From Malacoraja senta (taxonomy: Eukaryota), in contig CM075991.1 of NCBI GenBank assembly GCA_038087875.1, positions 11,224,001 through 11,288,000 on the forward strand: 64,000 nucleotides of DNA. Reading direction: 5' to 3'. The notes beneath the pieces are model-generated. The model did no database searches. It was not told the origin of the DNA and was given only the letters and a program-made list of their open reading frames with translations. Positions 3,139 to 59,859 of the stretch are shown piece after piece (within the stretch, counting starts at the first letter, position 1; every line of letters starts with the position of its first letter). A program made the translations under genes and the position numbers.

Positions 3139-4334
3139 TTTAGATACATAGATACATAGAAAATAGGTGCAGGAGTAGGCCATTCGGCCCTTCGAGCCTG
3201 CACCGCCATTCAATATGATCATGGCTGATCATCCAACTCAGTATCCCGTAACTCAGTATCCCGTACCTGCCTTCTCTCCATACCCCCTGATCCCCTTAGC
3301 CACAAATTAGTGGATTAGTTTTAATCATTGTATGAAATAAAAGAATTAAGGAAGATGGTAAATCTCAGTTTATGGTGGGTTCTATTAATGGTAGATTATT
3401 GAACCAATTGACAGAGGCTTAATTTTTTTTTAAATCTTTCAGGATAGAAAAAATGTATAAAATTCTTCAATCTATCTTTGCATACTGATCTGACAATATG
3501 AATGTCACTGGCCGCAAGTTTGACACTGTGTCATTCACATTTCAGTAATGTTTAACCAGAGACACTTGTACCTGGTGTCAAGATAAAGGGAGGTATCAAA
3601 GTTGAAACTCTTATCACTGAGTAAATAGTAACTATGAGGAAGAATTGGAGGACAAATACCAAAACGCACATCTTTTTAAAGGGAACCAACTGTTTTTGCC
3701 AGATGGAATAAAGGCCCAAATAGCAATGAGATTGATTCTTGACCAGCCACAATCTTTGACAAAAGTAGAATCAATTAACTTCTGATAAGAGTCTTGGAGG
3801 ACAAGGACAATATTAACAATTTCTTCTTTTTTTTTCCCCCCGTACTTCCCCAGTTCTGAGGAAAAGACACTGACCAGACGTTGGCCAATTTATCTTTCCA
3901 CAGATGAGTTCTACTACAATTTCTGTCTTTGTTTCAGAACCCAGCATGTGTAGTTTTTTTTTCTTTTCCCTATAATCAATTATGATTGGTAGAAGGGGAC
4001 CATGAAGTAGATATTAGGTACCTCTGTTCTGGCACCTCATTCATGGCTATACAAGTTACAAAATCACTGCACTGCCAGAACAATCTACTCCCTTACTTCC
4101 CGTAGCATCCTAGGATACTCCTGGTCACATCCTGTGGATTTATCCACTTGATTCTAGCAGCCTGTACTTGACTGATGTGCATTGCATCTGATTATTCACA
4201 TCTGGGAGCGAGTGACCATCAACCATTGAAGACTTCTGATCAGAAGGGGTCACCCTCTAAGCATGGTCACTGTTGCTCCGTTTCACAATTCTCAAATACA
4301 CTGATCTTTGTTCCCCTTTCCACAGACTGCAGGT

Positions 4335-4388
4335 GGGGTGGAAGATTGCAACCTTCACGTGGTCTGCCCTGTTTCGACTAATGCAATC
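4335..4388 (+). ncRNA. Minimal HDV-like (delta-like) self-cleaving ribozyme motif
   Basis: P1 GGGGTGG/CTGCCCT with G1.U wobble; P2 GATTGCA/TGCAATC; P3 ACC/GGT; L3 TTCACGT; P1.1 G4371; vestigial P4 T-TTCG-A; J4/2 CTAA with catalytic-C equivalent at 4378. Confidence 0.8.
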
Positions 4389-4473
4389 AACCCGGCGTGC
4401 ACAATCAAATAAGATCAAATAGAACAAGTTGTCCTACAACTTTAGGCTGTGCACACCATAAGCAAGAAGAAGA
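4335..4473 (+). mobile_element. ~140-nt short retroelement with 5' HDV-like ribozyme, copy 1
   Basis: TSD agactg(c/a)aggt (4324-4334 and 4474-4484), (GAA)n tail, three further copies in the window. Confidence 0.88.
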
Positions 4474-4575
4474 AGACTGAAGGTCTTTGTCTCGGGATCA
4501 GTAACTTGTTTGAACAGAAATGCTCACTGTCTTTGGTGTGAAATCAGATACAAAAACCTGCTGTGGAACCAATTA

Positions 4576-27635: not shown

Positions 27636-27771
27636 TCTTCTTCTTGTGTATGGTGTGCACAGCCTAAAGTTGTAGGACAACTTGTTCTATTTGATCTTAT
27701 TTGATTGTGCACGGCAGGTTGATTGCATTAGTCGAAACAGGGCGGACCACGTGAAGGTTGCAATCTCCCAC
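27636..27771 (-). mobile_element. ~140-nt HDV-like-ribozyme retroelement, copy 2 (first 3 nt missing)
   Basis: Reverse complement of copy 1. TSD gat(c/a)attaga at 27526-27535 and 27772-27781. A Penelope-end fragment sits in its tail. Confidence 0.85.
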
Positions 27772-45245: not shown

Positions 45246-45632
45246 TCTGGCTGTATGATAGCGCAAAGAGGTTGCAGATGCTTGAGTCTGGAGCAGTCCA
45301 ATTGAAGAGTCGTGATGTGAAGTGTCATCTGTCCATTTCCCATCCATAGATGCTGCCTGATGCACTCAGTTCCTCTGGCTGCCCCCTTTCTGCTATTTGT
45401 AAAAAATCGCTGTACTCAACAAGTCTCAATCATTTGCGTGTACTGGAACATGGATGAAAAGTCCCCAAGCAAAATCTCCAAGCACGTTGAAGCGCAAATG
45501 TTGGCATCTTGCAGTAATTCACTGGATGTATTCAAGAGAGAGTTAGATATAGTTCTTAGGGCTAACGGAATCAAGGGATATGGGGAGAAAGAAGGAACAG
45601 GGTACTTATTCTGGATGATCAGCCATGATCAT

Positions 45633-45771
45633 TGGGAGGAAGATTGCAACCTTCACGTGGTCCGCCCTGTTTCGACTAATGCAATCAACTCGACGTGCAC
45701 AAACGGAAGATCAAATAGAACAAGTTGTCCAACAACTTTAGGCTGTGCACGCCACACGAAAGAAGAAGAAG
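45633..45771 (+). mobile_element. ~140-nt HDV-like-ribozyme retroelement, copy 3, inserted in a CR1 3' UTR
   Basis: Perfect 13-bp TSD cagccatgatcat (45620-45632 and 45772-45784). Ribozyme core at 45633-45686. Confidence 0.88.
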
Positions 45772-46612
45772 CAGCCATGATCATATTGAATGGCGGTGTT
45801 GGCTCAAAGGGCCGAATGGCCTACTCCTGCACCTATTTTCAATGTAACAGGCCCTTCAGGCCACCGAGTCTGTGCCGACCTATGATCACCCCGTCGACTT
45901 GTACTATCCTATATAAGACCCTTCTTCAAATTGCCCTCTGGAGTCTGAAGAAGGGTCTTGACCCGAAATGTCACCTCTTCCTTTTCTCCAGAGATGCTGC
46001 CTGACCCGCTGAGTTACTCCAGATTTTTGTGTCGATCTTCAGTTTGAACCAGCATCTGCAGTGCCTTCCTACACAGGTGGTCCATTGTGTCCTATTGTCG
46101 AGGGAGGATTAGTGTTGCATTGTTCGGTTCAAGAACCTGATATTTGTAGGAAAGCGGCTGTTTCTGAACCTGCTGTTGTGGTCAAATTTCTGCCTGTCCA
46201 GCCCGACAGTAGCAGTGGGAAGAGAGCATGTCCTGGACGCTGGGTATCCTTGGTGATAGATGCCGCCTTCCCCAGACTTATTTGGCATTACTTTTAAAAA
46301 ATCGATTCTGTATCAGAATTTAAAATGCAATAAAGTGGGAGCTAAAATGTCCTGATGAAACATTTACTCAGACTATAAAATCTTATGGCAATTCGTTTCA
46401 TTGCTTCGTTTCCTCATGCCTTCGAATGTTATTGCACTGAGGGATTGAAATACTTCCAGAAGAAGATGCTGAATCTATTTTAAAAAAAATGAGATTAAAA
46501 ACTTCGAGGGATATGGGTTTAGTGCAAAAAATGCCTAATAACTCAGCTGCCTGCGTCTTGGTTTTCACATGCTTCTCCCTCTCTGCACTCCCCAGCTAAG
46601 GCCACCAGTCAA

Positions 46613-57124: not shown

Positions 57125-57935
57125 AAGTTCATAAGTGATAGGAGCAGAATTAGGTTATTCGGTCCATCAAGTCTACTCCACCGATCATTCATGGATGATC
57201 TATCTTTCCCTCTCAACCCCATTCTCCTGCCTTCTACCCATAACCCCTGACACCTATACTAATCAGGAATCTATCTGTCTCTCCATGAAAATATGCATTG
57301 ACTTGGCCTCCAAAGCCTTCTGTGGCAATGAAATCACACTCTCTGACAAAATAAATTCTTCTTCATTTCGTTCCTAAAGGAACATCCTCTAATTCTGAGG
57401 CTATGACCTCTGGTCCGAGACTCTCCCACTACTGGAATCATCCTCTCCACATCCACTCTATCCAAGCCTTTCGCTATTTGGTAAGTTTCAATGAGGTCCC
57501 CCCCTCATCCTTCTAAACTCCAGTGAGTAGAGGACCAGTGCCGACAAACTAATCATATGTTAACCCACTCATTCCTGGGATCATTCTTGTAAACCTCCTC
57601 TGGACCCACTCCAGAGCCAACACATCCTTCCTCAGATATGCTGCCCAAATTTGCTCACAGTACTCCAAATGCAGCCAGACCAGCGCCTTATGGAGTCTCA
57701 GCATTACATCCCTGTTTTTGGGGTGGGAGATTGCAACCTTTACGTGGTCCGCCCTGTTTCAACGAATGCAATCAACCTGGCGTGCACAATCAAATAAGAT
57801 CAAATAGAACAAGTTGTCCTACAACTTTAGGCTGTGCACGCCACATGCCAGAAGAAGAAGAACCTTGTTTTTTTATTCTAGCCCTCTTGAAATAAATGCT
57901 AGAATTGCGTTTGCCTTTCTTACTACCAATTCAAC
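57125..57935 (-). mobile_element. Older CR1 3' fragment hosting ribozyme element copy 4
   Basis: CR1 ORF2 end and (CTTATGAA)-type tail. Confidence 0.8.
57720..57862 (+). mobile_element. ~140-nt HDV-like-ribozyme retroelement, copy 4, inserted in a CR1
   Basis: TSD cc(c/t)tgttttt (57710-57719 and 57863-57872). Starts GGGGTGG; core at 57720-57773. Confidence 0.88.
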
Positions 57936-59859
57936 TTGTACTAATGGAAACTTCCTCTCCACATCCACTCTATCCAGGCCTTTCATCCATGCCGTTAGAT
58001 CAGGGAATCAGCAAATTATGCCTCTCCTGCCTGTTGTACCATAGACGCAAACGTTATCACCGCATCTCATCACACTTCCGTCACTTACATATGATCTGAT
58101 GACTGTGCAGGAAGGAACTGCAGATGCTGGCTTAAACCGAAGGTAGACACAAAAAGCAGGAGTAATCCAGCGGGTCGAACAGCATCTCTGGAGAAAAGGA
58201 ACAGGTGATGTTTTGGGTCTGGACCCTACCACAGACTGAGAGACGGGGGGGGGGGGGGGGGTGATTGAGAAGGTACGGAACAAAGCAGAGACTGCATTGA
58301 TGACTCAGGAAGGGTAGAGGCCACAATGGTCCATTGTGGCTGGGGCCTCGGTGATAACAAAATGCTGAGCCTGAAATTAAGCTTTACCTGCCCGCCAGGT
58401 GAATATTAATAATGGCATGGAACTGCTTGGAAGCACAGGAGGACCCTTTTATTCAATATTTATCCCTTGTCCATTATTGCCACAAAAAAAATTTAATTGC
58501 TATTGGTGGCATTTCCATCTCTAATAAGGTGTTACATTTTTCCATCATAACATTAGCTACACTTCAAGTACAGCCATTCCACCAGCCGTGAAGCTCAGTG
58601 GGATTTCCTGATATTACTCGCCATGTTCCAGAGATGTGCGTCTCTCTCTCTTCATGAAACACTTTGAGACACAGTGAGACATTTCCCCCGGCAACCCAGA
58701 GCATTTGGTGCACACTGTGGCTGCACAACATGGGTAATAATGTTCTAATCTGTTTGAAGGAGCCTGAGAGACAGACCGCCTTCTGAAACAATTCACTTGT
58801 GGCACTGATCTATCAATAGCCAACGGCAAAAACGTTGTCGCGGAGGGAAAAAACGGATATTAGTATCACAGGAAGCAAGTGGGAGCATCAGGAGAAGCAA
58901 AATAAGAGCAGAAAAGGATTGGCGACTTGATTTCTTTAATCAAAGGACATGTACTGTTTGCAAGCAAAGCAAATTTTGAATCGGCTAGCAAGACCAGGAA
59001 GACTTGTATTTCAATGGCACCTTGCATATGTTAGCATCCATAAGGATCCAGGTTAGAGCTGTGTAGATGCTGGTTTACACCGAGGATAGACGCAAAATGC
59101 TGGAGTAACTCAGTGGGATAGGTAGCATCTCTGGATAGAACGAATGGCTTTTGGGTTGAGACCCTTCTTCTGAAACGTCACCCACTCCTTCTAGCCAGAG
59201 ATGCTGCCTGTCCCGCTGAGTTACTCCAGCATTTTGTGTCTATATCCAGGTTAAGGCTGGCTCTTCATGGGATCAGTGGAGAACTCAAGTTTTCTATATC
59301 CCGTTTGTTTCCGAGATCGTATCTTCCAGCGTTCATTCTGAACAATTTCCACCTTGCTCTCATCTGCACATGATACAAATCTGACTGTTATCTGTCGAAA
59401 GAAGGGTGCTGATAAAAATGTCATCTGTCTATTCTCTCCACAGATGCTGCCTACATGCCGTGTTCCTCCAACACTTTGCTGTTTGCTCAAGATTTCAGCA
59501 TCTGCAGTCTCTTGTGTCTCCCTGACTCTGTCTTCCTTTCAGGATGCTGGCTGGTTTCCACTTCAGGCCACAACACTGTAAAGAACAGAGTGTAGAAACA
59601 TGGAACTGCAGATGCTGGTTGATATACAAGAACACAAAAGGAATAACTCAGCGCATCAGGCAAGATATCCAGGAGAACATGGATAGGTGACGTTCTAGAT
59701 CATGTCTGAGAAAGGATCCCGACCTGAAACATCACCTACCTGTGTTCTTCAGAGATGCTGCCTGACCTGCTGAGTTACTTCAGCATTTTGTGTCCTACCC
59801 TGTAAAGAACTTAACTTTTCTTATCTTCTGCATTTCTGTTGCATTTGTTCTGAAAATGT

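Follow-up and report, generated by a model that had tools for sequence, protein, structure and literature searches.

Copies of a short (GAA)n-tailed retroposon begin at the cleavage site of a predicted HDV-like ribozyme

Introduction

Ribozyme-headed, internally deleted elements are already known from trypanosomes and insects, namely NARTc, RIME and the R2 SIDEs. NARTc and RIME are non-autonomous derivatives of L1Tc and ingi and carry the Pr77 HDV-like ribozyme (PMC4035085; PMC3185411), and Ingi and Vingi are sister clades (PMC5786205). In PMC5786205, Vingi is named among the clades that make bipartite derivatives and stands outside the six listed with a 5′ ribozyme. Many HDV-like ribozymes are followed by sequence that they have in common and preceded by sequence that differs (PMC6765202), and R2 elements whose cleavage falls at their own 5′ terminus have variable junctions of the microhomology type (PMC3774820). 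HDV-like ribozymes that have no P4 are active in vitro (10.1101/2023.06.13.544163).

In this study, we analysed a 64-kb stretch of DNA (the window) and the genome to which it belongs (1.94 Gb), whose repeats seem to be of a cartilaginous-fish kind, for a (GAA)n-tailed element of ~128 nt, here labelled F1 (family 1), with G1 denoting the first base of its predicted ribozyme. Since ribozyme-headed elements should have their 5′ end at the cleavage site, such an arrangement is in itself not surprising; the value of the case would lie in genomic evidence that such a ribozyme works in vivo, in a vertebrate-type genome and in the Vingi clade. No literature on a Vingi ribozyme, on F1 or on a link between CPEB3 and Vingi was found in a search whose scope excluded subscription journals, patents, Repbase and supplements, which may hold one.

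Results

F1 copies in the window

Four F1 copies are present in the window, three on the plus strand and one on the minus strand (Table 1). The earlier note on this DNA had described their 5′ ends correctly: the left TSDs of copies 1 and 4 end right before G1 (4334 and 57719, with one mismatch per TSD), copy 3 begins at the equivalent position with T instead of G, after an exact TSD, and copy 2 is short by 3 nt, its TSD being weak (7 bp, one mismatch, 5 nt off the start). Copy 4 lies within an abundant host repeat (57400-57990). Its empty site is represented by contigs from other copies of the host repeat, which join near 57720/57874, and unrelated loose ends before 57718-57720 occur in 201 and 202 contigs of runs X23 and X24 (agreement 0.33-0.35). 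Because these loose ends come from the contigs of other runs (8 of 24 sequencing runs were compared, all from other organisms), the boundary of copy 4 is not peculiar to one assembly. The density of F1 in the window is ~6 times the genome average (4 per 64 kb vs ~10 per Mb); the window, which includes 200 N, is otherwise rich in LINE and SINE fragments.

Table 1 Positions of F1 features in the window, and of the two F3 copies elsewhere in the genome
Feature	Position	Strand	Basis or remark
Copy 4, F1 subfamily A, from G1 through the (GAA)n tail	57720..57862	+	sequence; other host-repeat copies join across it
Copy 4, left TSD, flush with G1	57710..57719	+	10 bp, 1 mismatch vs right; T-rich
Copy 4, right TSD	57863..57872	+	10 bp, 1 mismatch vs left
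Copy 4, predicted P4-less HDV/CPEB3-type ribozyme	57720..57773	+	descriptor parse, column counts
Copy 4, predicted P1 (G1-U36)	57720-26/57749-55	+	descriptor parse
Copy 4, predicted P2	57729-35/57767-73	+	descriptor parse
Copy 4, predicted P3	57736-38/57746-48	+	descriptor parse
Copy 4, predicted L3	57739-45	+	descriptor parse
Copy 4, G37	57756	+	descriptor parse
Copy 4, predicted catalytic-C position	57763	+	descriptor parse
Copy 4, 5′ arm of predicted 11-bp long-range stem	57778..57788	+	directly after ribozyme
Copy 4, predicted 7-bp hairpin in 3′ part	57811..57827	+	
Copy 4, 3′ arm of predicted long-range stem	57833..57843	+	directly before tail
Copy 4, (GAA)n tail	57850..57862	+	
Copy 1, G1 = 4335	4335..4473	+	sole window copy matching the strict ribozyme descriptor
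Copy 1, TSD	4324-4334 / 4474-4484	+	11 bp, 1 mismatch
Copy 2, start 27771, first 3 nt missing	27637..27771	-	
Copy 3, subfamily B, T replacing G1 at position 1	45633..45771	+	
Copy 3, TSD	45620-45632 / 45772-45784	+	exact, 13 bp
F3 copies	L105:316-505 and L373:365-554		n = 2 found

Start positions across the genome

Start positions were sampled through a 23-mer at element positions 77-99, which has 4,620 exact matches genome-wide. The first 70 matches were used, all from the first 27 Mb of contig C1, and removal of 4 segmental duplicates left 66 copies; 30 earlier loci that had been selected as full-length were kept out of this count. The alignment of F1 starts at position 1 in 50 of the 66 copies, at position 2 in 9 and at position 3 in 2, so that 61 begin within 3 nt of the G1 end, and the other five begin at positions 5, 6, 7, 20 and 76, one copy each. 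No common sequence upstream of G1 was seen in the 66 copies: the columns from -30 to -2 hold at most 0.33 bits, and those from +1 to +7 hold 1.2-2.0 bits. Thus, neither of the two outcomes that the earlier note had named as contrary to its reading, common upstream sequence and scattered starts, appeared when the junctions were aligned and the starts plotted as it had proposed. TSDs of 8-18 bp (mode 11-12) flank 54 of the 66 copies, compared with 0-1 when the flanks of different copies were paired (five shuffles).

A second sample of 80 evenly spaced 10-kb stretches (799 kb) held 8 F1 copies, 6 of which begin at G1; scaled to the genome, this gives roughly 20,000 copies, with a wide error. The tail pattern of F1 has 6,064 matches vs 73 in the control, a lower bound on the copy number. 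Being short, non-coding, flanked by TSDs, tailed by a repeat and present in many copies, F1 has the general features of a bipartite non-autonomous LINE of the SIDE type. One F1 copy has its head adjoining an oppositely oriented (GAA)n run (L241, C1:77.9567 Mb), and a look-alike of the F1 tail at C1:22.187 Mb (L361) proved to be no element.

What the clustering of starts shows

As a truncation control we used V1, a Vingi-like LINE of the same genome, for which 27 truncations among 29 loci give a rate of 0.0035 per nt. This rate predicts that 0.8% of copies would start in any 3-nt window, vs the 61 of 66 seen, and random 5′ truncation of a longer LINE, which the earlier note had discounted, is therefore excluded as the origin of the F1 ends. 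Consistently, four pattern searches that excluded the short form (118 matches, 100 of them listed; 79; 184, 100 of them listed; and 50) revealed, among the matches listed, no LINE body joined to either side of F1; those listed were indels, truncations and duplicates. At the V1 rate, a template as short as F1 would be copied as far as G1 in about 77% of cases, so the clustering demonstrates that the template ends at G1, without naming the cause. Of the further claim in the earlier note, that the copies come from reverse transcription of a self-cleaved RNA, the template end at G1 stands, and self-cleavage is the best and a supported reading of it; the cleavage itself we only infer.

Any fixed start would cluster the 5′ ends on so short a template, and the main rival to self-cleavage, which we consider unlikely, is a Pol II promoter within the head that starts at G1, with the fold serving as a back-up or as a protein-binding element in the manner of Pr77. 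Such an arrangement has precedents, as Pr77 of L1Tc and NARTc combines a promoter and a ribozyme that share their start (PMC4035085) and Pol II is considered to transcribe bipartite LINEs (PMC5786205). The junctions and the divergence of related heads, both described below, count against it.

The predicted ribozyme head

The intact F1 head (positions 1-54) can be read as P1 of 7 bp, P2 of 7 bp and P3 of 3 bp with a 7-nt L3, where C22 and G37 form P1.1, 6 nt replace P4 and C44 opens a 4-nt J4/2; the strand order is that of the nested P1, P2 and P3 of an HDV-like ribozyme. Among 61 copies, the expected base is present at G1 in 52, T20 in 59, C22 in 58, G25 in 56, T36 in 60, G37 in 61 and C44 in 57. 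The common variants of F1 fall in J1/2, L4, position 2 of J4/2 and downstream of the ribozyme, and the sole common helix variant, at position 31, is at a CpG and keeps a G-U pair. A P4 stem is absent: in F1, and likewise in the related family F2 (see below), just 6 nt separate G37 from C44, which fits the minimal HDV-like subclass. In copy 4, C22 is T (57741), so the C-G pair of P1.1 is lost, and the predicted ribozyme of this copy is probably impaired by the core mutation. The strict descriptor is passed by 19 of the 66 F1 copies and by 1 of the 4 window copies, and its five matches in 799 kb of random genome are all heads of such elements. Rfam at the gathering threshold gave no match on the window, and at E <= 10 none for the F1 and V1 heads. 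Energy folding of copy 4, a method blind to pseudoknots, was unremarkable (z -1.9 for 126 nt and +0.5 for the head).

In its short, non-coding and TSD-flanked form, its purine start and a body without a run of four T, F1 also resembles a Pol III (tRNA-type) SINE that starts at G1 and is like a ribozyme by chance. However, none of 20,000 dinucleotide shuffles meets the ribozyme descriptor, and the head shares ancestry with the 5′ end of a protein-coding LINE. Neither ARAGORN nor Rfam revealed a tRNA, and the best A box has 3 mismatches and the best B box 1 by the generally known consensus, a result equalled by 1,855 of 5,000 shuffles. The Pol III reading is thus largely refuted, and we regard it as extremely improbable.

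Junctions

Among the 61 F1 copies that start within 3 nt, 52 have a TSD, and the junction is flush in 25, overlaps the element by 1-2 nt in 15 and contains 1-5 extra bases in 12. The -1 column is T in 37 of 61 (0.42 bits); T precedes the start in 23 of the 40 junctions that are flush or overlap the element (against 0.28, p 9e-5), and the same holds for 16 of 30 F2 loci. This bias would follow from a nick preference or from an A that is added without template at run-off, and a templated U at -1 is a further possible source.

Capped templates leave an extra G at the junction, a signature familiar from L1 work. Of 50 full-length F1 copies, 1 has a G at -1 for which the target does not account. 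A copied cap is thus not indicated, in a test weakened by the GGGG start, which masks an extra G. This lack of an excess of untemplated G speaks against the internal promoter. Together with the lack of Pol III boxes above chance, it adds further weight to self-cleavage.

Four further lineages with ribozyme-like heads

Four further lineages with (GAA)n tails were found in the same genome. F2 (family 2; L246, on the minus strand, and L392-L421) is a short element of about 155-170 nt with a GAA tail and 752 exact core matches; of 30 loci examined, 1 was a duplicate and 23 of the remaining 29 start at G1. Its 3′ part reads like the final residues of a Vingi-type ORF. F3 (family 3) is about 190 nt in length and has a two-pair P1.1 and a P4; both copies start at G1, with TSDs flush with it, and the end of the tail resembles a LINE family, V3 (L477, L478). 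V1 is an APE-RT LINE of 3.1-3.2 kb with one ORF, whose product has a Cys/His knuckle at the C-terminus. V1 copies are broken and 89-97% alike; 8 of 16 heads (17 loci, 1 duplicate) start at G1 and the rest are 1-5 nt short. The F2 and V1 heads were selected by a core motif, which left only 13-15 nt for extension. V2 is a Vingi-like LINE with intact ORFs of 1,008 and 1,014 aa and is younger than V1 (98.6% over 600 nt, 6 copies; loci L472, L473 on the minus strand, L474, L476 and L480, and C4:35.487 Mb and C8:0.935 Mb); 3 of 5 heads start at G1 and two are 1-2 nt short. The V2 head matches the Rfam CPEB3_ribozyme model (RF00622) with 57.1 and 63.8 bits, above the gathering score of 35, and the F2 head reaches 30.2 bits, below it.

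When one real copy each of the F1, F2, F3, V1 and V2 heads was compared, 81 of 83 helix cells were paired and 13 of 17 base pairs had changed on both sides, with G1-U and the C of J4/2 invariant and the single C-G pair of P1.1 turned into CC/GG in F3. That five heads, all starting at G1, keep the fold by compensatory change gives weight to the ribozyme reading. It also stands against an internal promoter: the heads diverge widely yet keep their pairs and catalytic positions, which is more in keeping with selection for an RNA fold than with selection for a DNA motif.

At the 5′ end of the full-length V2 copies L472 and L473, and also in the head of L440, the P1-to-P3 segment is tandemly repeated, apparently through RT slippage between the two P1 strands. 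The repeats of L472 and L473, which suggest that RT slipped within the head, can be cited, along with some V1 copies that end 1-5 nt inside P1, in favour of another explanation, in which the RNA is longer, RT stalls at the strong pseudoknot and copies end near G1 without cleavage. However, RT must unwind the entire fold before it arrives at G1, and a stall would therefore be expected 3′ of the fold rather than at G1; common upstream sequence was present in 0 of 66 F1 copies. We hold such stalling to be very improbable.

Kinship of F1 with Vingi-like LINEs

F1 and V1 share 22 of 26 core nucleotides in the head (E 0.001) and 15 of 16 nt at the end of the tail (E 0.05). The 3′ part of F1 has no alignment with V1, V2 or V3 beyond these last 16 nt, so the LINE that drives F1 can only be presumed. 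The exact parent of F1 was likewise not found among the matches listed in the four pattern searches. A single V1 copy (L450, C6:8.6335 Mb) consists of ribozyme head and tail only, between TSDs, and is a birth event of a bipartite element, of the kind that founds such families. F1 itself appears to have arisen in the same manner, from the two ends of a Vingi-like parent through internal deletion. The tail of subfamily A ends like that of V1 and the tail of subfamily B like those of V2 and V3, which hints at a change of driver.

Both V1 and V2 have a single ORF of ~1,000 aa with APE and RT and without RNase H in ~3.1-3.3 kb, as in the definition of the Vingi architecture (PMC13708176). Their homologues are APE-RT proteins of ~1,000 aa without RNase H, on contigs of ~3.2 kb. 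V2 is 49% identical over 92% to the Anolis protein P0132, which we take to be Vingi-1_Acar-like. On the strength of this presumed identity and of the architecture, V1 and V2 are named Vingi-like here.

A predicted stem between the two ends

The 30 nt after the ribozyme were compared with the 30 nt before the tail in the five lineages, and a perfect complementary run was found in all five: 11 bp in F1 subfamily A and 9 bp in V2 (0 of 4,000 shuffles each), with weaker runs of 7 bp in F2 and F3 and 8 bp in V1 (p 0.02-0.03). By duplex energy, the long-range stem is significant for F1 subfamily A (0 of 1,000 shuffles as good) and V2 (1 of 1,000) and not for F2 (103) or V1 (152). In F1 subfamily B, the stem is 8 bp, a length given without shuffles, and one pair is broken without compensation. 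Many independent F1 copies have lost the 5′ arm of the stem through a recurrent internal deletion at positions 51-72, bounded by two short direct repeats.

Discussion

The sharp start at G1 with no common upstream sequence, the TSDs, the tail, the conservation of the fold and the kinship with a Vingi-like LINE are all observed for F1, and from them we infer its source of transcription, its cleavage and its driver. Taking these results together, we consider it likely that the predicted ribozyme cuts F1 out of read-through transcripts at G1 and that the uncapped RNA serves as template for a Vingi-like protein, from the (GAA)n tail to the cut. An F1 copy would be transcribed from an outside promoter, and its head would fold as a nested double pseudoknot and cleave 5′ of G1, giving an uncapped RNA with a 5′-OH. 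An APE-RT protein of the V1/V2 type would then prime on the GAA tail (TPRT) and run off at G1, and the end of the cDNA would join the target via microhomology of 1-2 nt or with a few bases added without template. Joining of this kind would lead to the T bias at -1 and to the occasional loss of 1-2 nt.

More tentatively, and at somewhat less than even confidence, we suggest that the Vingi clade starts with an active HDV-type ribozyme, that the short derivatives carry the smallest natural P4-less form in animals, that the paired ends of the RNA are the handle for the Vingi protein, and that the CPEB3 ribozyme is a domesticated Vingi 5′ end. The match of V2 to the CPEB3 model makes the origin of the mammalian CPEB3 ribozyme testable, and the five naturally diverged heads provide a ready covariation set together with a 54-nt assay substrate. 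The stem between the 5′ and 3′ ends may help to explain why two-ended derivatives arise in some LINE clades and not in others, a question raised in PMC5786205. Vingi is, in addition, a clade under development for gene insertion (PMC13708176).

Among described systems, NARTc and RIME resemble F1 in being short, internally deleted, dispersed and flanked by TSDs, with G1 of an HDV-like ribozyme as the first base (PMC4035085; PMC3185411). F1 differs from them in its vertebrate-type genome, its Vingi-like partners without RNase H, its (GAA)n tail and its 54-nt P4-less head; promoter activity is a feature described for Pr77. The R2 SIDEs join a ribozyme head to the 3′ end of a LINE (PMC3414825), and R2 elements that cleave at their own end have 5′ junctions with microhomology and untemplated bases like those of F1 (PMC3774820). 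However, R2 is site-specific in 28S rDNA, its endonuclease is restriction-like and R2 SIDEs are rare, whereas F1 is dispersed in about 20,000 copies. The non-autonomous derivatives of Vingi-1_EE (cited in PMC5786205) are, as F1 probably is, internal deletions of a single-ORF APE-RT LINE without RNase H.

With regard to the ribozyme itself, the CPEB3 ribozyme has G1-U36, U20, C22, G25 and G37 at the same numbers as F1 and also has one G-C pair in P1.1 (PMC4836649). F1 differs in the sequences of its helices, in having no P4 and in giving no match to RF00622, and the CPEB3 ribozyme is a single intronic copy in mammals, whereas F1 is multicopy. The minimal HDV-like ribozymes, including the theta ribozymes, share with F1 the absence of P4, cleavage at G1 (predicted for F1) and the catalytic C as first base of J4/2 (10.1101/2023.06.13.544163). 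These minimal forms are described there from metagenomes and phages, next to tRNAs, whereas the predicted ribozyme of F1 heads an animal retroposon.
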